Shown piece after piece: positions 25,329-48,863 of a stretch of DNA of 64,000 bases. The translations under genes were made by a program, and so were the position numbers. Origin of the DNA: a bacterium (GTDB taxonomy: Bacteria > Patescibacteriota > UBA1384 > 2-12-FULL-50-11); NCBI GenBank assembly GCA_021463485.1, contig JAJTYJ010000001.1, positions 65,378-129,377 on the forward strand, in the 5' to 3' direction. The notes beneath the pieces were generated by a model that saw nothing but the letters and a program-made list of their open reading frames with translations, searched no databases and was not told the DNA's origin. How positions within the stretch are numbered: the first letter of the stretch is position 1; every line of letters starts with the position of its first letter.

Positions 25329-26933
25329 CTACGGGGTGTAGCTCAGTTGGTAGAGTGCGCGGTTTGGGACCGTGAGGCCGGAGGTTCGAGCCCTCTCACC
25401 CCGACCAAATGTGACAGCTGATTTATCAGCGTCACGCATAACCTGATAAAACTTACTAATTTGGGTGTTCAAATAGCCAGGGTAGCTCCACGTGAGTCCA
25501 GAGGGGAAAATTGAACACAACAGCATTCTCTTCTGTTGGAGGTTGCTTGTCTCGTAAGTTTTGGCCAGGTCTTTGAACTTTTCGCGAATGAAAGTTGTGA
25601 CGTCTTCGATATTGTACTTGGTGATCAAGTCGTCGTTTTTCGTGACCTGAATAACTGTAATTTTCTCTTCCAGCAAGCGATTCTGCTCACGAAAGATATC
25701 GTCCGAGTATATCCCCGCTAAGTTCTTTTCAATGAGACTCTGACGCGTTTCATAGAGTTTGCGCAGCTCTTCATCGGCCTGTTCTCGTCGCTTTTGAAGC
25801 GTCGAAACACGGTGATAATAAGTTTTTCTCAAGAACGTACTGACCAAATCCAGCGCCTTAATAGACAAGCTGACATGTCGCAGCAGTTGTCGGGTTTCCG
25901 CTTCTACGTCCTCGACCGGAACCGATTTAGCCTTACTACACCATTTTTGACATAGGTAGTAAGCGAAGCGTTGTTTCTTGCCTTTCGACCACCCGGCAGT
26001 TAATGAGAAACCACAGCCACAACATTTGACGATCCGTCGCAACGGAAACTCCGGATTGTCCCGATTCTTTTTCGCCAACGGTTTGGCAATATTAACGTTT
26101 CGGCCATCCAGGATCGCTTGAACGCGATAAAATTGCTCTTCCGTCACCATCGGCGAGTGTTGGCCGGGTACTTCCTGGCCGTACTTTTTGGAAACAATCT
26201 TGCCGATATAGAATTTGTTGCGAAACATCCGCTGAATTGTTTGACCTTTGATTTTGAATTGCTTACCGGAGCGATAGCGAACTTTCAGATTTTTCTCGTC
26301 CAGAATCTTAGCCAGTTCGCGTAGTGATTTTGTCCCCGTTGCCATCAGATCCCAGGCATTCTTGAGCTCGTCGAACATAGCCGGATCTTTGACGACATAA
26401 CCGTTTTCATTCAAATAACCGATCGGGGTATAACTCATCGGCAACCCGGAGAGAAAACGTGCTCGCAGACCGTTTCTGGCTCGCTCGCCCCGCACATCAT
26501 TGTCCATTTGAGCAAATCCGGCGAGCATCGTTTCGACAAACTTTTCGGTCGGACTGTTACCGGTCGGCTCACTTGCGGAAATAAGGCCGATATCACACTC
26601 AGCCAATTTCTTCCGAATCACTAAGTAGTCGGCCGTTTGACGCGAAATCCGGTCAAGACGATAGACGATCACCGCATCGATTTCCTTTTTGTGCTTGCGG
26701 CAATACTCCAGCATTTTAATCAGCTCGGGCCGACCCTTGATCGTTTTGGCCGATCTTCCCTCTTCCCGAAATGTCTCGACAACCGTCATTTTTCGACGGG
26801 CCGCTTCTTTGAGGCAAATATCTTCCTGTGTCGCCAGCGAATAGTTTTCAACCTGCTCTTCGCTCGACACCCGAATGTACACAACTGCCCCGCCTGTTTT
26901 CTTTGGCGCTTTATCGAACACGGATTGATCCAT
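25329..26933 (-). CDS. Large serine recombinase (phage-integrase type)
   Basis: N-terminal resolvase catalytic domain (VVYIRVSSEEQ), recombinase domain, Cys-rich zinc ribbon (CCGCGF...YYLC), coiled-coil; the 3' end of the ORF reads antisense through tRNA-Pro. Confidence 0.85.
   Translation of the reverse strand: MDQSVFDKAPKKTGGAVVYIRVSSEEQVENYSLATQEDICLKEAARRKMTVVETFREEGRSAKTIKGRPELIKMLEYCRKHKKEIDAVIVYRLDRISRQTADYLVIRKKLAECDIGLISASEPTGNSPTEKFVETMLAGFAQMDNDVRGERARNGLRARFLSGLPMSYTPIGYLNENGYVVKDPAMFDELKNAWDLMATGTKSLRELAKILDEKNLKVRYRSGKQFKIKGQTIQRMFRNKFYIGKIVSKKYGQEVPGQHSPMVTEEQFYRVQAILDGRNVNIAKPLAKKNRDNPEFPLRRIVKCCGCGFSLTAGWSKGKKQRFAYYLCQKWCSKAKSVPVEDVEAETRQLLRHVSLSIKALDLVSTFLRKTYYHRVSTLQKRREQADEELRKLYETRQSLIEKNLAGIYSDDIFREQNRLLEEKITVIQVTKNDDLITKYNIEDVTTFIREKFKDLAKTYETSNLQQKRMLLCSIFPSGLTWSYPGYLNTQISKFYQVMRDADKSAVTFGRGERARTSGLTVPNRALYQLSYTP
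25332..25407 (+). tRNA. tRNA-Pro (anticodon TGG), CCA encoded
   Basis: CGGGGTGTAGCTCAGTTGGTAGAGT..anticodon loop TTTGGGA..GGTTCGAGCC..CACCCCGACCA. Confidence 0.8.
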
Positions 26934-37695: not shown

Positions 37696-38346
37696 TCAAT
37701 CTTTCTTGAACTCTTCCTCGGCTTTTAAGAATTGAGTCGCGACTGAGCCGACTACTGTTCCGATCGTACCGATTCCGATAATCATCAGCATCATGGCAAC
37801 GATCCGTCCGGCTGTAGTGACCGGGTATATATCGCCATATCCGATAGTAGTGACCGTTACCATCGCCCACCAAAAGCTATCGAAAAGATTGTGAATATTT
37901 TGATTAACACCGAATTCGTAACTGTGAAAAGCAACTGCTCCCATGAAAACGAGCGTAAAGACGGTCAGAATAATCGAAAGTAACTGGAACTTCGGACCGT
38001 CTAAATAAAAATCAGCCACCCTGCGCATTCTAGCCATCAAGCGAATAATTCGTAAGACCCTTAACAATCTAAGGCTTCGTAGAACCTGCGTCGTTGTGTT
38101 TGTAATTGGTATGGAGGCCAGGAGTTCGTACCAGCGTTTACGGAAAAATAAAGCCTTGTTTTTAGCCTTCACAAAGCCATAAATAAAGTCGGCCAGAAAA
38201 ATTAGCGCAATTCCTAAATCCAGCCTGCTGATTAACGTGCTCGTCGATGCAGTTACGTCATGATTTATTTCGAAAACCAACAGTCCCGTTGAAAGGATTG
38301 CCAGGATTACTAACCCAAAATCCAAGAAGATCTCGCTCTTTTTCAT
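37696..38346 (-). CDS. Voltage-gated potassium-channel-like ion transport protein
   Basis: TIGYGDIYP selectivity filter (TxGYGD), S4-like RSLRLLRVLRIIRLMARMRR arginine repeat, pore helix and S6. Confidence 0.8.
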   Translation of the reverse strand: MKKSEIFLDFGLVILAILSTGLLVFEINHDVTASTSTLISRLDLGIALIFLADFIYGFVKAKNKALFFRKRWYELLASIPITNTTTQVLRSLRLLRVLRIIRLMARMRRVADFYLDGPKFQLLSIILTVFTLVFMGAVAFHSYEFGVNQNIHNLFDSFWWAMVTVTTIGYGDIYPVTTAGRIVAMMLMIIGIGTIGTVVGSVATQFLKAEEEFKKD

Positions 38347-39236
38347 TAAATTAGTTTATCAATGAGTGCTATTGCCCCATGTGCAGCGATGTTACCTGCG
38401 GCATTAATCAGTATCTCTCTTGTGGCTTTGAGTAGCTTCCCTATCTTTGAACTTTTTGGATCTGTCTTCACAGTCTTTTCTAGCTCCTGAAGATTCGAGT
38501 CTAGTTCACGCTTTTTATTTTCCGGGAGCTCTATATCGGGCGCAAACTTTCTTATTTGTTCTACTAGGCCCAAGACCTTTTCCGCTGAAATATTGGCGAC
38601 GAATGTTGAGTTAGTGTTTGTAGCATTACCGATCGTGCCAGAAAAATTCTCAATATTATTAATTGTGTATTGTACTTGCGGGGAGCTAGCCTTCTCCTTA
38701 TCTTCTTCAGTAAAATCTAAGTCGTGGCCGACAATCCCCATGTCCTCAAGTTTTAAACTCCAGCTAAGCACAGCGTTCCTGACACCATCAATAATCCCTT
38801 TAAGCTCACTATGTTGTGTAAAGAAATTTATTTCCGTTTCAAAATCAATTGCTTTCGCGATTGTGTTTCGTGCTTCCGGTCCCAAAGGAAGGTAATACGA
38901 GCCATCAACCTTTCCCTCTTTTACTAAATTCTCAACTTCTCCAATCGGCTGAATTACACCCTTTTTTGATACGAGTTCATGGACCTTCTTGTCTTCAATT
39001 ATTATAGTCTGCCACCCTCGAACAGGATTAAGCGCCCTTAACTGCCCGGAAACTATTCGATAAGCCGGTAAATCTTTCTCGGTGGAATCGTAGCCATTTA
39101 ACTCACTCTCGATCCAGGCAAGCATATCATCAAGCTTCAGCTTACTGGCGATGACTTTTGCTTTGAGAAGTAAATTAGTTACCGAAACAGTTGGGGTTAG
39201 TACGTCTCGTTGTAATTCTTTTACTATTGCGCCCAT
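38346..39236 (-). CDS. Hypothetical protein, possibly AbiTii-like abortive-infection N-terminal domain
   Basis: 296 aa; N-terminal LLLKAKVIASKLKLDDMLAWIESELNGY resembles the AbiTii family signature as recalled from memory (not checked against a database); stop overlaps the K-channel start (ATGA). Confidence 0.35.
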   Translation of the reverse strand: MGAIVKELQRDVLTPTVSVTNLLLKAKVIASKLKLDDMLAWIESELNGYDSTEKDLPAYRIVSGQLRALNPVRGWQTIIIEDKKVHELVSKKGVIQPIGEVENLVKEGKVDGSYYLPLGPEARNTIAKAIDFETEINFFTQHSELKGIIDGVRNAVLSWSLKLEDMGIVGHDLDFTEEDKEKASSPQVQYTINNIENFSGTIGNATNTNSTFVANISAEKVLGLVEQIRKFAPDIELPENKKRELDSNLQELEKTVKTDPKSSKIGKLLKATREILINAAGNIAAHGAIALIDKLI

Positions 39237-39247
39237 TCGATCTCTTT

Positions 39248-40378
39248 TTAGCTCGAGAAAATATCGACGTACTTTTTGTAGATATACGTTCGATCATAGG
39301 TTTCGTTTTCATCTTTCGGCTGGAGAATACCAAGCGCAATGAAGCGATCAATAACTTTCTGCGCTCCTGCCCGAGTGTAGCCAGTCCAGTCCATAATGAT
39401 TTTGGTCGAAACGATTGGCTGCGCATAGAGTTTACGTAGTACCAAGACACCGCTTTCCGACTCGCGCTTAGCGAGTGCCTGAATTTTAAGCATATCGTCT
39501 TCGCGAAGTTTAGTAATTTCTTTAGAAATCCGAATGGATTCGTTGGCTGTTTCCATGACACCCTCAAGGAAAAAGTCGAGCCAGCTCCACACCTCTCCGT
39601 CATGGTAGCCGTTAAGCCTATTGTAATAGAGTTTTTGGTGTTTTTTGAAAAACGTCGACAAGAAAAGCACCGGCCGCTCAAGTAGGCCGTGATGGCAGAG
39701 TAGCATCGTAATCAGCAGGCGTCCTGTCCGACCATTACCGTCGAGGAATGGGTGGATAGTTTCAAACTGAGCGTGCATTAAGGCTGCATGAATGAGAGGT
39801 AGGGTTTGATTCTCAACATGAAGAAAAGTTTCGAATTCGCTGAGCGATCGCTCCATTTCCAAAATCGGTGGTGGGACAAAGAAAGCGTTGGCCGGAGAAG
39901 TCCCACCAATCCAGTTTTGAGTCTTACGAAACTCACCTGGATCAGCAAAGTGGGTAGCTCGCGCCCCGGTCATCAGCTCTTTGTGAATTTCTTTAATCAG
40001 CCGTAACGACATCGGAAAATTCTTTAGTCGTTCGGTTCCATACTCCAACGCTTTGATGTAGTACAAAATATCACCAGCGTCAGTCTCTTGAGTCGCCACA
40101 CCGCCTTCCTTCTCAATTGCATCAACAATGGTTGCCTTTGTTCCCTCAATCTGTGAAGAAGAAGTGGCATCCTTTAAGACAAACATTTTCAAGAAAAAGT
40201 CGACATCTGGCAAAGTGTGGGTGATGCCATCGAGTTTTCCTACCAAACGGCCAGCCTCCGCGGTTTTTATCTGAATTTCTGAGGGCAAATCAAAGATACC
40301 TTCCGGCGGAAAAGCATTCGGAACGAAAGCTTCGTAGCCTTGCGACTGAAGGATGTTCTTTCCAATTTCGATATTCAT
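39248..40378 (-). CDS. Fic family protein (AMPylase/phosphocholine transferase fold) with C-terminal wHTH
   Basis: IHPFLDGNGRTGRLL matches the canonical Fic motif HPFx[DE]GNGR. Confidence 0.85.
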   Translation of the reverse strand: MNIEIGKNILQSQGYEAFVPNAFPPEGIFDLPSEIQIKTAEAGRLVGKLDGITHTLPDVDFFLKMFVLKDATSSSQIEGTKATIVDAIEKEGGVATQETDAGDILYYIKALEYGTERLKNFPMSLRLIKEIHKELMTGARATHFADPGEFRKTQNWIGGTSPANAFFVPPPILEMERSLSEFETFLHVENQTLPLIHAALMHAQFETIHPFLDGNGRTGRLLITMLLCHHGLLERPVLFLSTFFKKHQKLYYNRLNGYHDGEVWSWLDFFLEGVMETANESIRISKEITKLREDDMLKIQALAKRESESGVLVLRKLYAQPIVSTKIIMDWTGYTRAGAQKVIDRFIALGILQPKDENETYDRTYIYKKYVDIFSS

Positions 40379-41280: not shown

Positions 41281-43548
41281 ATGGAGCGGCTTGAATCCTC
41301 ACATTTTGGCGACCCTATTACTGCCGAGCTCTCGGAAGCACAACCGCTGGAACTGCCTGAAGAAGCGTTCGCTGAAACCGCGGTAGCCCAGCCGGAACAG
41401 CAACCCGAGCTGCCGACGGAACACCAATCCCCCGAACAAGCCTACCAAATGCTCCGCCGGGGCGGCGGTGACAAGGAAATTCTGGCTCGTTTCGAGCCGG
41501 ACCAGCAGAAGGATATCGAAGATAAGCAGAAAATTCTTTCATCGCTTGCCTATTTTATCGGCAAAGACTTCAAAATCCCGGTCAAACTGAACGAACCCGG
41601 CGCCGGATGGCACTGGGATTTCAAAGACAACATTATCAGGGTCGATCCGAAAGACCTGCTGGAAAAACCCATGGATTACCTGCGTTTCGTCATCTCGCAC
41701 GAAGGCGGCCATCGACGGATTTCCCGAACCGAGTTCATTCCGATGGACGTTTGGGCTCAACCAGGCTTCTCGATCATGATGAACTCGATCGAAGATCCGC
41801 GAATCAACAACTTCGTCGCCGAAAACTATCCGAAGTTCCGCGAGCAAATGCAGATGGCTTACCAGATGGAACTTGATCTCGAGAAAACAATGAAGGAGAA
41901 AGCGACCGAAGAACTCGGCCACCAACCGCGCTTCATTCAGGCAAGTTTTGAATACATCAAGCAGTGGCTGAAAGAGCAGAACGGGGGCTTCGGTGAAGTC
42001 AGCGAAGATCTGCCGGACGAGGTGAAAGAAGTCATCGCCAAAACGTTGCCTTCGGCTCAAGATTCCTGGTGGCGTTACCCCTCACGAAAAGAAGCCGACA
42101 GCAGCGAGAAAACTATCAGCAAGTACGCCCAAACGTCGTACGAGATAAATCGCGACGAAGTTTGGCCGGAATTCAAAAAACTCGTCGATCAGGACATTGA
42201 AGACGAGAAAATGGAACAGAAGATGCGGGACATGCAAAAGCAATCCGGCGAAGGCGGCGAGGGTGGAGAGCCCGGAGAAGGACAGCCGGACTTGCCGCAG
42301 GAACTCAAAGATCGGATGACGCCGGAGCAGCAACAGGAACTCCGAGACGCGCTTCAGCAAGCGATGGACAAAGCCCGCGAGCAGCAAGAGCAGCAACGGA
42401 GCCAGCAAACTGAAGGTGGAGCCCAAGAGAACGAACAGCAGGAACAAACGACTGCACCCGTCGATTTGGATTCGCTCAGCGAAGAAACCAAGCAAGCCGT
42501 TCGCGATTACATCGAAAGTCTGCCCGAAGAAGTCAAAGAAGAATTGGCCGAACGGGCTCGTCAGGCGCTTAAAGAATTCGAAGAAGCGGTCAACGAGGAA
42601 CTTCGCGGCAAACTAGTGCAAGAACCCGGCGAAGAAACCAAAGATAAAGCCAGAGGCGAGACACGGCGTTCCGACCGAACCGGTCGGGATGTTCCACCGG
42701 AGTACAAAGAGGAAATCGAAAGATATAAGGAATTGGTCGAGGGAACGCTCGAAAAAGACGCCAATGTTTACGAAGAAAAGCGCCGGGAAGTGTTGGAGAC
42801 GATCAACAAACTCGAAGATGACCTGCGGGCGATTTTCGTCGAGCGTCGGGCTCACATGTGGGAGGGCGGTCATCGCTCCGGCAAGCACATCGACATCAAA
42901 CGAAGAATCCAGGAAAAAGCCAAAGACATACCGGCCATGGAAAGCCGAGCTTGGGAACGTAGAGAAATGCCGCAAGAAAAAGATTACGCTTTTAGCCTGC
43001 TGGTCGACCTGTCCGGCTCAATGACGAGCGGCAACAAAATCGGCGAAACCTTCAAGGGCGCGATCGTTTTGTCGGAAGTGCTCAATCGCCTTTCGATCGA
43101 CAACGAGATTCTCGGCTTCAACGACCGTCTTCATGTTTTGAAGAGCTACGAAGAAGCGATGTCCGACGAAATCCGCGAGCGGATGGGCGGCATGCTCTCC
43201 GAAGTCAACTCGCCTCGAGCCCGCTACAACGACGACGGTTGGGCGCTCGAACAAGCTTCCGAGCGACTGGCCAAACAAAAAGCGGCGGAAAAGTTCTTGA
43301 TCCCGATGTCCGACGGTCAGCCGGAAGAGTCGCCGCAACACTCGAAAAAAGAGTGGGATCTGGAAAACGTCGTCGCCAAGATTCAAGAAGAGACCGATCA
43401 GAAGCTAATCGCTCTCGGTATTGGTCGCGGAACCGAACACGTCGCCCATTACTACCCCAACAGCCTGGCGAACGTCGACGTTAACGAAATGGCTGACAAA
43501 TTAGCCGACTTACTCAGGGAAGCGATTGAAAGATATGACCAGTTCTGA
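41281..43548 (+). CDS. vWA-domain protein with N-terminal HExxH zincin-like domain and E/Q-rich linker
   Basis: VISHEGGHRRISR (HExxH); C-terminal DLSGSMTSG MIDAS motif (DxSxS). Confidence 0.7.
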   Translation: MERLESSHFGDPITAELSEAQPLELPEEAFAETAVAQPEQQPELPTEHQSPEQAYQMLRRGGGDKEILARFEPDQQKDIEDKQKILSSLAYFIGKDFKIPVKLNEPGAGWHWDFKDNIIRVDPKDLLEKPMDYLRFVISHEGGHRRISRTEFIPMDVWAQPGFSIMMNSIEDPRINNFVAENYPKFREQMQMAYQMELDLEKTMKEKATEELGHQPRFIQASFEYIKQWLKEQNGGFGEVSEDLPDEVKEVIAKTLPSAQDSWWRYPSRKEADSSEKTISKYAQTSYEINRDEVWPEFKKLVDQDIEDEKMEQKMRDMQKQSGEGGEGGEPGEGQPDLPQELKDRMTPEQQQELRDALQQAMDKAREQQEQQRSQQTEGGAQENEQQEQTTAPVDLDSLSEETKQAVRDYIESLPEEVKEELAERARQALKEFEEAVNEELRGKLVQEPGEETKDKARGETRRSDRTGRDVPPEYKEEIERYKELVEGTLEKDANVYEEKRREVLETINKLEDDLRAIFVERRAHMWEGGHRSGKHIDIKRRIQEKAKDIPAMESRAWERREMPQEKDYAFSLLVDLSGSMTSGNKIGETFKGAIVLSEVLNRLSIDNEILGFNDRLHVLKSYEEAMSDEIRERMGGMLSEVNSPRARYNDDGWALEQASERLAKQKAAEKFLIPMSDGQPEESPQHSKKEWDLENVVAKIQEETDQKLIALGIGRGTEHVAHYYPNSLANVDVNEMADKLADLLREAIERYDQF

Positions 43549-43990
43549 CTTAATTAAAGATATGGCAATTGATGAGCAATCCTTTAACGAATTCATTGAG
43601 ATCTCCGGTTTTTCCAAGGAAGTGCCGCTGATCATTGCCGAAGACGAAGACGAGCTTCATCAATATCGCGCCCAGCTGCAAAAGGCCGGTTATGAAGAAC
43701 AAGAATCGGTTTATCACCTCGTTCAGGCTTCCCACAAAGGTTCGAAGAATTACCTGGTACTCGACGGTCACCATCCGTTCACTTTAAAGCAGGCCTACGA
43801 CTTCGTTGTTCAGTACCCGACCGGCCAAATTGAAGTTTCCGACCAGGTGACGATGCAGAAAGCGATTTTCTCGCCCAATTATAAAGAAAACCGAACCGTT
43901 CTGTTGGTAACCAAGCGAGAGCTGGCCGAAATCCAGAAAACCGGTTTAACGTTCTTGTCCCGAGTCGGGGCAACCTATCAACATGCCTGA
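43526..43990 (+). CDS. Hypothetical protein (possible vWA-MoxR-associated protein; DGHH motif)
   Basis: 154 aa ORF overlapping both neighbours (operon-coupled); contains YLVLDGHHPFTL. Confidence 0.4.
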   Translation: MKDMTSSDLIKDMAIDEQSFNEFIEISGFSKEVPLIIAEDEDELHQYRAQLQKAGYEEQESVYHLVQASHKGSKNYLVLDGHHPFTLKQAYDFVVQYPTGQIEVSDQVTMQKAIFSPNYKENRTVLLVTKRELAEIQKTGLTFLSRVGATYQHA

Positions 43991-46082
43991 ACCAGGATCA
44001 CCGGAACACCAGCCAGACATGGAGGCGGAGGCGCAAGCCGAAGTCGTCGCTCCCGACGTTGAAACCGAACAACCGGCCGGCCCGATCGCCGAAACGGAGA
44101 ACAGCGTTTCCTATCTCGGCGTGGAGCTGAAAAAAGCCGAAGCGGAAAAGAGCCAATTCGTGCCGGATCGAGAACACTATAAAGATTACATTAACGACCA
44201 ATTCTCGCTCGAGCTTCAGCAGAAGCTGGCCGTCAGTTTTCTCCAAGGCGAGCCGATGCTCTTGGAAGGCGGCACCAGTATCGGTAAGACGACGACCGTT
44301 CGAAAGATGGCTTCCGAACTCAATTGGGAAGTCCACTACGTCAACTTAAACGGCGCCAGCGACGTTGAAGACTTGATGGGCCGTTACATCCCCAACCCTC
44401 ACCGCCAGATGATCGGGGATCCCGAATACATCTTCGCCGACGGCAAAGTCACGTCCGGCTTGCGCCTGGAAGAGGGCAAGCAGAAAGTCGTCATTCTTGA
44501 TGAGCTGAACGCCGCCCCGCCGAACATTTTAATTCGTCTCCACGAAGTACTCGACGCCTTGGAGCGGGGCACTGAAGTGGTCTTGTCGGAAGACGCGTCC
44601 GAGGCCGTCAGGGTTAATCGCGAGCAGACCAAAGTCGTCGGACTGATGAACCCGCCGGGCAAAGGTTATTTTGCTCGTGAACCGCTCGACCCGGCTCAGC
44701 TTCGTCGCTGGAACTATCAGAAAGAGGCCTCGACACTGCCTGACGAGACGTTCGCGCACGCTACCGACGTTCTCTTCGGCTTGGCTACGGAAATGGATCC
44801 TAACGCCGTACCGCAAGAATCCTATTTAACGACTCGCGATCAGCGGCTAATGCCCGAGCAGTTGGCCGAGATCCCCGGCATTCAAGAAGTGCTCGGCAAA
44901 TACAAAGAATTTCATAAAGCGGCCAAAGAAATGGTCAATAATCGCACGGTTGCCGCCGATCAGCCGCAGCGCTTTACCTACGACGATCGCATGGAGCCGA
45001 GAAGGGTCAAAGAATTCGTTCAACAGTTCTACAACGGCGACATTAATGAAACTTTCCAAAAAGCTCTTCAGTATTACTACTCGAATAAAGTTGAGAGCAA
45101 ACAAGATAAACAAAAACTCGACGAGCTGATCAAACACGTCGCCTACGTACCGCAAGAGGCGACGCAACGTCGCGGTGCCGAACGTGAAGCGCCCGACGGT
45201 GCGGCAGCAACCGCCGCGCCGGACACCCGTATTCCGGAAACAATTACGCCGCTCTCTGGAGAGCTGCTTGAACAAGTCACGGAGGCGCAGAGAATTCTCG
45301 GTGCCGAAAACGTTGTCTCGCCGGACAAAGTTCGGGAAATCCTGGGCCTTAAGATTGATCTTGAGAAAGTTCCGGCCATTCCGTTCTCCAAAGAAGAACT
45401 CGAGCGAGCCAAGGAACTCGGCCAGTTTCTCGTTTATCGCCACGACAGAGATGATCGTGCACGCCACTTGACGATGGAACGACTTCAGGAACTCCTGCAA
45501 CCGAAGTTCGATAAAGAAGACGACGGCAAAGTTCTCTACGATACCAGTTGGTACAAGAACGAAGACTTCTTCACGAAAGAAGCGATGCGTTCAGGCTGGG
45601 CGTTGACCAGCCGAGAAGTCATTCCGGATTCGACCAGCAAGAACTATCTCCAGCAGACTGGTGAAATAGCGACCTATCTCGGCACGAAAGTCATGAAAGA
45701 AATCGCCGATCCGAAATTACGCGCTGAATACGGCGAAGCGATCAAAGAATACGAAGTTAAACGAGTAGCAATTGAGAAAATTATTGACTCAGACTGGAAA
45801 GAAGCCGCCAAACAATTGGAAGAACTGAAGCTTAATAAGCTCTTCCGCCAAACGCTGGTCGAAGCGATGTACGATACCGCCATGTACCTCGAGAACCGAC
45901 CGAAAAGCGAACGAGACGACGCTCGTTTGTTGGAAGACATGTACGGCTGGACCAATCGGCGTTCGTCCGATGGCCACCTGGTGTATGCCGGTGCATTCCA
46001 CGCCTACGGCCTGCACGTGGACGACGATCGCCCGGGCCGCGCGCCTTCCGATGTCGGTGTCGTCCTCTCCCGCAATCGCTAG
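43983..46082 (+). CDS. MoxR/AAA_5-type AAA+ ATPase with C-terminal lectin-like DGR target domain
   Basis: GGTSIGKTT Walker A, VVILDELN Walker B, MNPP sensor; C-terminal 40 aa encoded by the DGR variable repeat. Confidence 0.75.
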   Translation: MPEPGSPEHQPDMEAEAQAEVVAPDVETEQPAGPIAETENSVSYLGVELKKAEAEKSQFVPDREHYKDYINDQFSLELQQKLAVSFLQGEPMLLEGGTSIGKTTTVRKMASELNWEVHYVNLNGASDVEDLMGRYIPNPHRQMIGDPEYIFADGKVTSGLRLEEGKQKVVILDELNAAPPNILIRLHEVLDALERGTEVVLSEDASEAVRVNREQTKVVGLMNPPGKGYFAREPLDPAQLRRWNYQKEASTLPDETFAHATDVLFGLATEMDPNAVPQESYLTTRDQRLMPEQLAEIPGIQEVLGKYKEFHKAAKEMVNNRTVAADQPQRFTYDDRMEPRRVKEFVQQFYNGDINETFQKALQYYYSNKVESKQDKQKLDELIKHVAYVPQEATQRRGAEREAPDGAAATAAPDTRIPETITPLSGELLEQVTEAQRILGAENVVSPDKVREILGLKIDLEKVPAIPFSKEELERAKELGQFLVYRHDRDDRARHLTMERLQELLQPKFDKEDDGKVLYDTSWYKNEDFFTKEAMRSGWALTSREVIPDSTSKNYLQQTGEIATYLGTKVMKEIADPKLRAEYGEAIKEYEVKRVAIEKIIDSDWKEAAKQLEELKLNKLFRQTLVEAMYDTAMYLENRPKSERDDARLLEDMYGWTNRRSSDGHLVYAGAFHAYGLHVDDDRPGRAPSDVGVVLSRNR
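45959..46079 (+). repeat. DGR variable repeat (VR) at the 3' end of the target gene
   Basis: About 120 nt that align with the template repeat at 46376-46497; nearly all mismatches lie where the template repeat has A. Confidence 0.8.
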
Positions 46083-46375
46083 TCTCGGACCTTGGCTCTT
46101 GGGCCCTTGGATTTATCGGCCGCCGGCGAAGCCGGCTCGCGCGAATTTTTGTAAATCAGCCCTCCCCCTCTTTAATTCCTTTGTAACATATGCTAAAATT
46201 CACCTGCCAATGAGGCTGCGTTCACGGACTCAGCCCGGCCGAATAGTAAGAAGATTGCTTGCGTTTTACTGGCGCGGGTGGCAAAACTTTTGCCTGCCGC
46301 CGCATTGTTATACGGGCACGGTCTCTATTTCTTAGTGCATCGGTGCCGCTGACTGAATTGGGAAAACGCAAAGGA

Positions 46376-46497
46376 GCGTTCGTCCAATGGCAACCTGGTG
46401 TATGCCGGTGAATTCAACGCCAACGGCCTGAACGTGGACAACGATAACCCGGACAACACGAATTCCGATATCGGTGTCGTCTTCTCCCGAAATCTCA
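46376..46497 (+). repeat. DGR template repeat (TR)
   Basis: Intergenic A-rich copy of the VR; encodes NPDNTNSDIGVV, a lectin-type consensus; lies between the target gene and avd/RT. Confidence 0.8.
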
Positions 46498-46553
46498 CGC
46501 TATTCACAAAGCTTAGTCTCAGCTCACCGGCTGAGATTTCGCTTAACGTTCGG

Positions 46554-46934
46554 TTAATTATTAGCGTTTAAGCTCTGAACGGATTTAATCCAACCGCCGA
46601 GCATTCGACCGATTTCCTGCAAAATTTCTTGTAAGTGGATATAAGCTTTCCGGTCGACAGCGCGAAGATCGTAAGCCAACCGAATGAAGACCTTAACCGT
46701 TTCGAGCTGAAGACTGGCGTTCTTGAGGTGATTCTCTTTGTCGCTGCCGGAAGTTTCACAAGCGGCGAGCAGGCATTTGAGTAGGTCCAGAGTTTCGTCC
46801 TGAAGGGTTTGGCCGGTCGCATAGCGTTCAATCTTGGGAAAACGCTGAACTTGTAGGTGCAGAAGTCTGTAAAAATCATAAGTTTTCTGGGTAATCGGCA
46901 CGCCGCCCAGCAATTGTTGAGAAAGAATTTCCAT
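46554..46934 (-). CDS. avd: DGR accessory variability determinant (Avd; four-helix-bundle family)
   Basis: About 127 aa from Met 46934; FPKIERYATGQTL...LQEILQEIGRMLGGWIKS matches the Avd/23S-IVS four-helix-bundle pattern. Confidence 0.65.
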   Translation of the reverse strand: MEILSQQLLGGVPITQKTYDFYRLLHLQVQRFPKIERYATGQTLQDETLDLLKCLLAACETSGSDKENHLKNASLQLETVKVFIRLAYDLRAVDRKAYIHLQEILQEIGRMLGGWIKSVQSLNANN

Positions 46935-46995
46935 TAAGAAACTATTACTACACGAAGGAAGCTTTGACCAGGTTGTCTCAGTCGACAACCTCTTT

Positions 46996-47964
46996 TTGGC
47001 GTGGAAAAATTACCGCCGAGGCAAGCGGAAGAAAGAGGACATTCAGCTTTTCGAGTATCGCTTAGAAGACAACGTCTTCGCTTTGCACCGGGATTTAATT
47101 GACGGAACCTATAGCCCCGGCAGTTACCAGCAGTTCCGTATCACTGATCCGAAGTTGCGTCTGATCAGTAAGGCCAGCGTCAGGGACCGACTCGTTCACC
47201 AGGCGATCTACCAGATTCTTTACCCCCTGTACGACATGACCTTTATTTCCGATTCGTACGCCTGTCGGAAAGACATGGGAACGCATCGAGCGTTTCGCGA
47301 ACTGGTCGACCACGCTCGCCGAGTCAGCAAAAACTACACGGCTCCTTGTTGGGCTATTAAGATGGATATTAAAAAGTTCTTTGACAGTGTTAACCACGAA
47401 ATTCTCAAGAAAATATTAAGAGAACGAATCGGCGACCATCGACTGTTACAGTTGCTCGATCAAATCATCGACAGTTTCGATGTCACGCCCGGGAACGGCA
47501 TGCCGCTCGGCAATCTGACTAGCCAATTGTTCGCCAACGTCTACATGGATCCGTTAGATAAGTTCGTCAAACATAAGCTCAACGCGTCGCACTATCTGCG
47601 ATACGCCGACGATTTTCTATTGCTAGGGCAAAATCCGGAAGAGCTGATCGGCTACTTCGTGGAAATTACCCGATTCTTACGTGAACGGCTGGACTTAAAC
47701 GTTCACCCGACTAAATCGACGCTTCGGAAACTCAATTGGGGAATCGATTTCGTCGGCTACGTCGCCCGGCCGCATCACAGCGTTCCGCGAGCGCGAACCG
47801 TTCGTCGGATTGATCGAATTTTAACAAGGCACATGAGGGACGATCCGGATAAGATTAAATACAGCGTCCCGTCGTATATCGGTTACCTTTGCCACGTGCG
47901 CAGCCAAAAGCTGATTAAACATTTGGTCGGTATCGCTGCGGCTGCTGACAAGGGTGGTACTTAA
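46996..47964 (+). CDS. DGR reverse transcriptase
   Basis: RYADDFLLLG (YxDD box), PLGNLTSQLFANVYM ([IL]GxxxSQ DGR hallmark), 322 aa. Confidence 0.9.
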   Translation: MAWKNYRRGKRKKEDIQLFEYRLEDNVFALHRDLIDGTYSPGSYQQFRITDPKLRLISKASVRDRLVHQAIYQILYPLYDMTFISDSYACRKDMGTHRAFRELVDHARRVSKNYTAPCWAIKMDIKKFFDSVNHEILKKILRERIGDHRLLQLLDQIIDSFDVTPGNGMPLGNLTSQLFANVYMDPLDKFVKHKLNASHYLRYADDFLLLGQNPEELIGYFVEITRFLRERLDLNVHPTKSTLRKLNWGIDFVGYVARPHHSVPRARTVRRIDRILTRHMRDDPDKIKYSVPSYIGYLCHVRSQKLIKHLVGIAAAADKGGT

Positions 47965-48098
47965 ACGGGCTTTTTGTAGGTTTCCAGTTTTTCGATCTCT
48001 TCTTTGGTTTTGGCTTCGTAATTGCATTGAGAGCAACGAAAGTAGGTATCGGTTTTAATCATCGTACCTTTGCATTTCGGACATTTTCGGTAGAGCAT
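47961..48098 (-). CDS. Small zinc-ribbon protein (45 aa)
   Basis: Manual translation MLYRKCPKCKGTMIKTDTYFRCSQCNYEAKTKEEIEKLETYKKPV with two CxxC pairs; below the ORF-track length cutoff. Confidence 0.3.
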   Translation of the reverse strand: MLYRKCPKCKGTMIKTDTYFRCSQCNYEAKTKEEIEKLETYKKPV

Positions 48099-48181
48099 TA
48101 TTCTTTACTATCATATAAAGCCGCTTCTGATAACAAACGCCTCTATTGTAGGGTCATGACATTACAGGTTAGAATCAATCT

Positions 48182-48394
48182 ATGAATGAGCAAGAGCTAA
48201 AAAAAGTCTTTCTAAATCCTTTTTACGCTATCCAATTTGCTCCGTATCTGACGAGTGAGCACGAACCAATGGTCTCAAAAGAGGAGTGGATTGCCGCTAA
48301 CATCAAGCTTATGGACGAACTGGGCAAAGAAGAGTGGCTTCGACAGTTGTTAGAAGTGCTTGAATCGAGCAACCCACCGTCAGCCGAAAAGTAG
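48182..48394 (+). CDS. Hypothetical small protein
   Basis: 70 aa ORF. Confidence 0.3.
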   Translation: MNEQELKKVFLNPFYAIQFAPYLTSEHEPMVSKEEWIAANIKLMDELGKEEWLRQLLEVLESSNPPSAEK

Positions 48395-48680: not shown

Positions 48681-48863
48681 TCTCCTCCTGGTACACTTTC
48701 ATTATCTGGTCAACCCATGACAAAAGGTGTTCTAAACAAGTTGCATTAGGGCGACAGTATTGGCGAGAACCAGGTTCGATTTCGACGGAACGAAGTGGAG
48801 GAGAAACCCTGAGCGAAGCGAAGGTATGCCTCTCACCCCGACGGTATTACCGAGAACCAGGTT

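Follow-up and report, generated by a model that had tools for sequence, protein, structure and literature searches.

Among the diversity-generating retroelements (DGRs) found in the candidate phyla radiation (CPR), 90% share the architecture B3, in which a template repeat (TR), avd, and a reverse transcriptase (RT) gene follow one another as TR-(avd)-RT (Wu et al. 2018, PMC5758913). The same survey described a target class, UVR4, that matches the AAA domain of midasin, and left open the fold of the domain that carries the variable repeat (VR). In the account of Paul et al. 2017 given by Doré et al. 2024 (PMC10907252), AAA-CLec proteins, where CLec stands for C-type lectin, are the commonest targets of CPR DGRs. 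RT clade 2 is restricted to Patescibacteria (Roux et al. 2021, PMC8144416), and in MoxR-vWA ternary conflict systems the vWA protein can carry a fused FGS/CLec domain that is diversified by a DGR (Kaur et al. 2020, PMC7159879). Here we describe a DGR in a 64,000-nucleotide stretch of a Patescibacteria genome (contig JAJTYJ010000001.1, positions 65,378 to 129,377; referred to here as the window), together with its target gene, its partner genes, and its relatives. To our knowledge, cDNA priming and the recipient-site mechanism have been worked out only for the element of phage BPP-1.

We hold with high confidence that the locus is a complete DGR of a Patescibacteria-specific lineage, arranged as target-VR / TR-(avd)-RT and operating by the mechanism proposed below. 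Its core parts are as follows:

43983 to 46082, plus strand: DGR target gene, 699 aa, a MoxR/midasin-class AAA ATPase with a disordered linker and a C-terminal domain modeled as a CLec/formylglycine-generating enzyme (FGE) fold
45959 to 46080, plus strand: VR, the last 41 codons of the target, by its ungapped 122-nt match to the TR
46376 to 46497, plus strand: TR, non-coding and A-rich (31 A in 122 nt)
46554 to 46934, minus strand: avd, 126 aa, inverted relative to TR and RT, by Pfam bAvd and NCBIfam DivGenRetAVD
46933 to 47964, plus strand: DGR RT with a probable AUU start, by RVT_1, the Protein Data Bank (PDB) match 8ub7_A, LGNLTSQ, and YADD

A complete DGR had been proposed for this locus in the original prediction, which was made from the letters of the sequence, and every component named there passed an independent test. 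The order and strands (TR plus, avd minus, RT plus) are those of TR-(avd)-RT with an opposite-strand avd, and the Patescibacteria host and single adjacent target are likewise shared with CPR B3 DGRs; nothing essential differs. As in UVR4-type targets, the VR lies at the C terminus of a ~700-aa midasin/MoxR-like AAA ATPase. The VR domain, undecided in Wu et al., is modeled here as a CLec/FGE fold, and we additionally document VWA and small open reading frame (ORF) partners, an RNA domain 5′ of the TR, and a pentamer array flanking the VR.

The adenine-specific relation between the two repeats was observed directly. The region from 43800 to 48300 was read and the two repeat regions were slid against each other; the best register, at an offset of 417 nt, pairs VR 45959 to 46080 with TR 46376 to 46497 over 122 nt without gaps. 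The repeats differ at 20 positions, 18 at a TR A and two at a TR T (46482 T>C and 46495 T>G), so that the VR departs from the TR at 2 of 91 non-A positions. Given the 31 A of the TR, the hypergeometric p value for this bias is 2e-11. All 16 A mismatches upstream of 46054 fall in codon position 1 or 2 of the target frame, and the four 3′-most mismatches (46065, 46073, 46078, and 46080) are grouped at the VR 3′ end. Translated in the VR frame, the TR gives the Asn-rich peptide ERSSNGNLVYAGEFNANGLNVDNDNPDNTNSDIGVVFSRNLT. The original prediction had placed two ~120-nt copies at these coordinates, with an N-rich TR peptide and a few exceptions near the VR 3′ end, all of which the alignment bears out; tabulation by TR base also upheld its proposed bias toward TR adenines, whereas its estimate of 22 to 25 mismatches was too high. 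An A-tolerant scan of both strands of the whole window returned no further VR.

Three loci share one fixed, synonymous difference: the VR reads CCCG(C)AATC where the TR reads CCCG(A)AATC. It behaves like the discriminator between the initiation of mutagenic homing sites of known DGRs (IMH/IMH*), and its role at the recipient site is putative. At the level of sequence, the locus carries putative recipient-site markers of both kinds, namely, IMH/IMH*-type 3′ differences and a GC inverted repeat found only after the VR.

The two protein components were assigned by comparison with profiles and solved structures. The avd product scored 68.1 bits with Pfam bAvd (cutoff of 40) and 85.1 bits with the NCBIfam equivalog DivGenRetAVD, "diversity-generating retroelement protein Avd" (cutoff of 80); with both curated cutoffs exceeded, the predicted identity as accessory variability determinant is secure. 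The RT matched Pfam RVT_1 at 1.9e-25, and its nearest solved structure is 8ub7_A, the RT of the Bordetella phage DGR (bRT; E = 9e-46, 160 bits); group II intron RTs score lower (94 bits), and retron-type RTs come next. DGR RTs typically have motif 4 in the form [LIV]GxxxSQ. This motif is present as LGNLTSQ (47506 to 47526) and is accompanied by the YxDD box as YADD (47602 to 47613), placing the enzyme in the DGR lineage; which DGR clade it belongs to is taken from the literature. The protein, about 345 aa long, is too short to accommodate a maturase or endonuclease extension.

The RT start required separate consideration. The frame is open from 46921, and the alignment to 8ub7_A begins at residue 11 of the frame opened there, yet no ATG, GTG, or TTG occurs in frame between 46921 and the TTG at 46996. 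The original prediction was correct about the DGR identity of this enzyme and about YADD and LGNLTSQ, but had begun the gene at that TTG. Because the residues encoded 5′ of TTG 46996 align to the N terminus of bRT, and a start there would remove conserved N-terminal residues, the true start is likely to lie near 46933. An Ile codon (ATT at 46933) is conserved in the window and in the related loci L002 and L003, and most other relatives have ATG at this position; on these alignments, translation probably begins at AUU 46933. The ATT overlaps the avd ATG (46932 to 46934, minus strand) head to head, leaving no intergenic space for a promoter. An alternative genetic code with TGA as a sense codon was considered informally for the missing start and set aside: the ORFs of 755 and 699 aa read through under table 11, and an upstream extension of the RT frame would run antisense through avd. 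A small minus-strand ORF (47963 to 48099), convergent with the RT gene, encodes an apparently zinc-ribbon-like peptide, MLYRKCPKCKGTMIKTDTYFRCSQCNY..., as read by eye.

Relatives of the target show the same adenine dependence on a larger scale. The family comprises >400 proteins of ~700 aa, of which the named ones are Patescibacteria "AAA family" or "MoxR-like" ATPases; all named homologues come from Patescibacteria metagenome-assembled genomes, in line with the CPR setting proposed from the outset. Family C termini share Y.WT..R.S.G.LV.vG.F...G..v....P......lGVsfSR, with hypervariable positions between. In the family alignment, columns in which the TR codon has A at position 1 or 2 have an entropy of 2.70 bits versus 0.94 bits for the others (Mann-Whitney p = 6e-7). 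Some AAA homologues end in unrelated C termini. A scan of one genome per species gave 78 loci (designated by L numbers), in which the order VWA gene, small ORF, AAA-VR gene is near-universal; where enough downstream DNA is available, most have an opposite-strand avd and then an RT. The cassette as a whole is present in dozens of Patescibacteria genomes. A clean TR/VR pair of 114 to 132 nt is present in 20 independent loci, in addition to the window and a duplicate assembly of the window. Pooled over all of these, 353 of 365 mismatches fall at TR adenines, with A making up 24% of the TRs.

Two departures from the single-target layout were seen among the relatives. In L004, L006, L018, L024, L026, L027, L030, L040, L050, and L070, a second gene of ~1 kb with a paralogous VR-bearing C-terminal domain is placed between the AAA target and avd, and one TR may serve both targets; the window has one target only. 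In L013, L020, and L042, a VR-like C terminus and its flanking pentamer array are present with no avd or RT within 5 to 6 kb, and these targets may be served in trans by a distant DGR or may be relics.

Signs of continued diversification came from comparing the window with its orthologues in L002 (80% identity) and L003 (70%). At shared non-A sites, VR-VR identity (74/88 for L002 and 69/85 for L003) equals TR-TR identity (75/88 and 70/85), so each VR has kept pace with changes in its own TR. Where both TRs have A, the TRs are identical at 26/26 positions, and the VRs agree at 13/26 (L002) and 10/26 (L003). VRs that are randomized at A sites yet track their TR elsewhere indicate that homing continued after these lineages split. 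This is the pattern expected of repeated mutagenic homing after divergence, and by this comparison the DGR of the window is apparently working.

Around the two repeats lie five further elements:

46091 to 46110, plus strand: three CTTGG (YTTGR) pentamers between the target stop codon and the hairpin, spaced as CTTGG-CT-CTTGG-GCC-CTTGG
46122 to 46136, plus strand: GC hairpin GCCGGC-GAA-GCCGGC, with a 6-bp stem and GAA loop, followed by a T run at ~46146 to 46150
46191 to 46199, plus strand: extended -10-like promoter element TGCTAAAAT, putative, for the TR RNA, from comparative alignment
46214 to 46371, plus strand: structured RNA domain 5′ of the TR, with hairpin P1 (46214 to 46235) and helix P2 (46259 to 46270 paired with 46360 to 46371)
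46518 to 46541, plus strand: stem-loop immediately 3′ of the TR, with a 10-bp stem and CACC loop, from RNAfold

The CTTGG triple is unique in the 64 kb on both strands. Downstream of the VR, a 70-nt stretch in the 20 other loci contains 1 to 6 copies of YTTGR, with at least 2 in 19 of them, compared to a locus mean of 0.3 to 0.7; the 70 nt after the TR are free of it in 19 loci, and L065 has a single copy there. At two-target loci, each of the two VRs has the array, as do VR-like genes without a nearby RT, while AAA homologues without a VR-like end have none. Complementarity between the array and the flanks of the DGR RNA was sought by eye, and nothing consistent across loci was found. The simplest idea is that the array is a recipient-site marker, a role that we consider putative.

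The hairpin noted at the beginning of the work just after the VR is present, and it is an element distinct from the stem-loop after the TR. Its single-sequence stability is not significant (z = -0.64), and the support for it is comparative: related loci also have a hairpin in this position, built from other stems (for example, CGACTCCC/GGGAGTCG and GACCCGC/GCGGGTC), and across loci the loop after the VR is often GAAG or GNRA-like. We treat it as a candidate functional element.

For the region between the VR and the TR, ten loci were aligned from a TATAAT-like box to the TR. This box lines up in 10/10 seed loci, where it sits at the 5′ boundary of the RNA domain, and TGCTAAAAT is thereby a putative promoter of the TR RNA; a scan for consensus promoters and terminators (45900 to 48200) gave no sites above shuffled sequences and missed this comparatively defined element. 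RNAalifold predicted 27 pairs, 17 of them with compensatory changes, including P2, a 12-bp long-range helix closing 5 nt short of the TR. The ten seed loci served to build a covariance model, which retrieved the domain in 29 sources, 18 of which are loci outside the seed, and all 29 matches adjoin a TR. In an alignment that had been fitted to the covariance model, the paired fraction of cells is 95.2%, compared with 72% for shuffles and 39 to 53% for slid controls, and double-change cells number 180 versus 57 in shuffles. An Rfam scan of 45800 to 48200 gave no match at E ≤ 1 to a group II intron, a retron, or any other RNA, so the TR leader matches no curated family. The TR flanks surveyed by Handa et al. 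(bioRxiv 10.1101/2023.10.23.563531) span 40 nt upstream and 100 nt downstream only.

Downstream of the TR, a strong hairpin lies 12 to 25 nt past the repeat in about 14 of 20 related loci (folds read by eye). These hairpins are often flanked by A and T runs and are located between the convergent TR RNA and avd. The same preprint describes an "Avd-binding stem-loop just downstream of TR," and the position of the 46518 to 46541 stem-loop fits that description by analogy; it could also act as a bidirectional terminator.

The target gene is the third of a three-gene module, whose other members are as follows:

41281 to 43548, plus strand: VWA-domain partner gene, 755 aa, first gene of the target module, by CobT_C and a weak VWA match
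43526 to 43990, plus strand: small conserved ORF154, 154 aa, between the VWA and AAA genes, by positional conservation

In the target itself, the AAA_5 domain spans residues 92 to 242 (about 44256 to 44708) and is classed as MoxR, with midasin as the best PDB sequence match. Sequence profiles alone did not reveal the fold of the C-terminal domain (45249 to 46079); modeling assigned it a CLec/FGE fold, within which the VR is predicted to sit. The VR thus occupies the 3′ end of the target ORF in a fold of the variation-tolerant kind (CLec or Ig) used by DGRs. Compared to Treponema denticola TvpA (PDB 2y3c), a surface lipoprotein, the modeled domain has 14% identity, is carried by an intracellular AAA ATPase, and has a long helical insert (model residues 133 to 224 of 277).

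The VWA partner protein matched Pfam CobT_C at 3.6e-15 in addition to a weak VWA match, has a MIDAS-like DLSGSM starting at 43006, and is encoded immediately before the target at almost every related locus. ORF154 gave no family match in Pfam and NCBIfam searches, and most related loci have a homologue at the same position with 25 to 83% identity. Because no transmembrane or hydrophobic segment was found in the VWA protein, ORF154, or the target, the module is predicted to be cytoplasmic. The MoxR-vWA systems of cyanobacteria and gammaproteobacteria (PMC7159879; PMC10907252) are similar in having three genes, a MoxR-class AAA protein with a vWA protein, a DGR-diversified FGE/CLec domain, and a predicted cytoplasmic location, and here too a MoxR-clade AAA protein and a MIDAS-bearing vWA protein are encoded in one operon. 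In contrast to those systems, the variable domain is on the ATPase, the third component lacks a VMAP, iSTAND, or peptidase domain, no effector domain is recognizable, and the RT lineage is different by published phylogeny. As neither a defined third component (VMAP, iSTAND, FtsH, or beta-propeller) nor an effector or FGS domain on the vWA protein was recognized, the module is an analogue of the ternary systems and not a member.

The closest mechanistic reference is phage BPP-1 (mtd-VR / avd-TR-brt), with which the locus shares adenine-specific TR-to-VR transfer, Avd and RT, a CLec-fold variable domain (modeled here), a GC hairpin after the VR, a few fixed 3′ TR/VR differences (IMH/IMH*), and a stem-loop 3′ of the TR. 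Unlike in BPP-1, avd lies in inverted orientation and converges with the TR, the RNA with conserved structure is found 5′ of the TR instead of in a 140-nt 3′ spacer, and a YTTGR array separates the VR from the hairpin. An ATPase predicted to be cytoplasmic takes the place of a phage tail fiber as the target, and the element is cellular and probably carried by an island, not by a phage.

By analogy with phage BPP-1, we infer the transcript boundaries and the priming and homing steps of the following mechanism. A noncoding RNA of ~340 nt would be transcribed from a promoter just past the terminator hairpin of the target gene and would consist of the structured 5′ domain, the 122-nt TR, and the 3′ stem-loop. 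The RT, acting with Avd, would copy the TR into cDNA with misincorporation opposite template adenines, and this cDNA would take the place of the VR in the 3′-terminal part of the target gene. As such, ~19 codons in the ligand-binding face of the CLec/FGE-fold domain would be randomized while scaffold codons are kept. The protein diversified in this way would be a soluble AAA ATPase of the MoxR/midasin class, its gene lying alongside those of a VWA partner and a small third protein, and its variable CLec domain would most likely select the ligand or client of an intracellular, ATP-driven MoxR-VWA machine. The whole module would travel as cargo of an integrative conjugative-type island.

The genes around the module bear on this last step. 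Upstream are tRNA-Pro (25332 to 25407) and genes for a serine recombinase, an M23 peptidase, a VirB4/TraG-type ATPase, PrgI, a pilin/TrbL protein, a coupling protein, a Replic_Relax relaxase, an ion channel, AbiTii, and Fic; downstream of the module are a gene for a helix-turn-helix (HTH) protein and then DsbB, a ZIP transporter, and housekeeping genes. The 3′ end of tRNA-Pro(tgg) contains a 14-nt sequence, CCTCTCACCCCGAC, at 25392 that is repeated at 48829 to 48842, just before DsbB, where ~0.04 matches would be expected by chance. These repeats would bound an island of roughly 23.4 kb. The initial suggestion that the DGR rides on a mobile island is consistent with this gene content and with the flanking repeat. 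Homologues of the recombinase, VirB4, M23, or TrbL genes also flank the cassette in ten loci (L003, L005, L006, L019, L023, L040, L051, L065, L076, and L077), so the link with conjugative-type elements is recurrent, and recurrence beside type IV secretion system and serine recombinase genes supports the mobile-island claim. The recombinase ORF (25329 to 26933, minus strand) runs antisense through the entire tRNA-Pro gene. The AbiTii (3.7e-41) and Fic/DOC genes occupy 38346 to 40378 on the same putative island, a few kilobases upstream of the DGR module, which suggests defense or toxin cargo.

Several observations weigh against an intact, active DGR of this kind. The RT has no canonical start upstream of its conserved N terminus, a possible sign of low expression or decay; the four contigs with the target protein all have the same sequence, and its 90% cluster has a single member; the promoter, RNA ends, and priming site are deduced; and the role of the target is read from domain content only, with a third gene that has no recognizable domain. 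The missing start and the invariant VR, together with the lack of near-identical VR variants of the target in the protein collection, are also what would be left by a fossil DGR, its parts recognizable and its VR frozen. We consider such an element improbable. The RT catalytic motifs are intact in a frame that is open through the conserved N terminus, and conservation of the start-site Ile across three loci at 70 to 80% identity suggests a selected AUU start. Preservation of every shared TR adenine between orthologues and the near-perfect match of the VR to its TR outside adenines speak against it as well, and a long-dead element is unlikely because non-A differences would have accumulated. 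Present-day activity and the cellular role of the target are both inferred. It is far less credible still, to the point of being negligible, that the TR is a duplicated fragment of the target 3′ end beside an unrelated RT from a group II intron, retron, or defense system. The best NCBIfam model for the RT is indeed a group II intron RT/maturase, at 147 bits against a cutoff of 300, and several models of defense-associated RTs (DRTs) match weakly. That explanation was rejected on the placement of 90% of mismatches at A of the non-coding copy, repeated in 20 other loci, on the above-cutoff equivalog match of Avd, on the higher score of bRT than of group II RTs, and on the empty Rfam scan, which covers group II intron and retron RNAs; the short RT, without space for a maturase or endonuclease extension, adds to these points.

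A further alternative contests only the functional part of the complete-DGR reading, where a host-attachment or housekeeping factor may be set against a DGR-armed defense or conflict system whose hypervariable CLec domain senses invading proteins inside the cell. The latter draws on the conserved triad of MoxR-class AAA protein, VWA partner, and small third gene, all predicted to be soluble, on the AbiTii and Fic neighbors, and on the precedent of DGR-diversified FGE/CLec domains in MoxR-vWA ternary systems (PMC7159879; PMC10907252). It is weakened by fusion of the CLec domain to the ATPase and not to the vWA protein, by the failure to detect a VMAP, peptidase, TIR, or other effector domain, and by the placement of CPR RTs in a clade separate from conflict-system RTs (PMC10907252). 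PADLOC, moreover, gave no meaningful match for the target, Avd, or the VWA protein. On balance, we regard a defense role as rather unlikely while still worth entertaining.

In all, the cassette is the commonest, already described type of DGR in Patescibacteria, with the architecture and target class that are the published norm, and beyond the CPR DGR surveys already in print the element itself contributes little. The accompanying observations may be of more consequence, and novelty may lie in the 5′ RNA scaffold, the VR-flank array, the AUU start, and the cassette's recurrent pairing with a VWA partner and with conjugative islands. We advance only tentatively, as somewhat short of an even prospect, that the ~160-nt 5′ RNA domain and the YTTGR array are undescribed and that they point to 5′-scaffold assembly, repeat-marked recipient sites, conjugative cargo, and a sensor-armed MoxR-VWA machine. 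Were this true, the RT-Avd-RNA particle of B3 DGRs would form on a 5′ scaffold, where BPP-1 relies on its 3′ spacer, and a repeat array would label their recipient sites; Patescibacteria conjugative elements would routinely carry the cassette, which would equip a MoxR-VWA machine with a hypervariable sensor inside the cell. Testable handles on cDNA priming and recipient-site choice in inverted-avd DGRs, the majority type in CPR, come from the AUU start, the 5′ RNA domain, and the VR-flank array. For annotation, the genome has an intact hypermutation system aimed at one intracellular ATPase, and its probable travel on a conjugative-type island bears on the adaptation of ultra-small episymbiotic bacteria.

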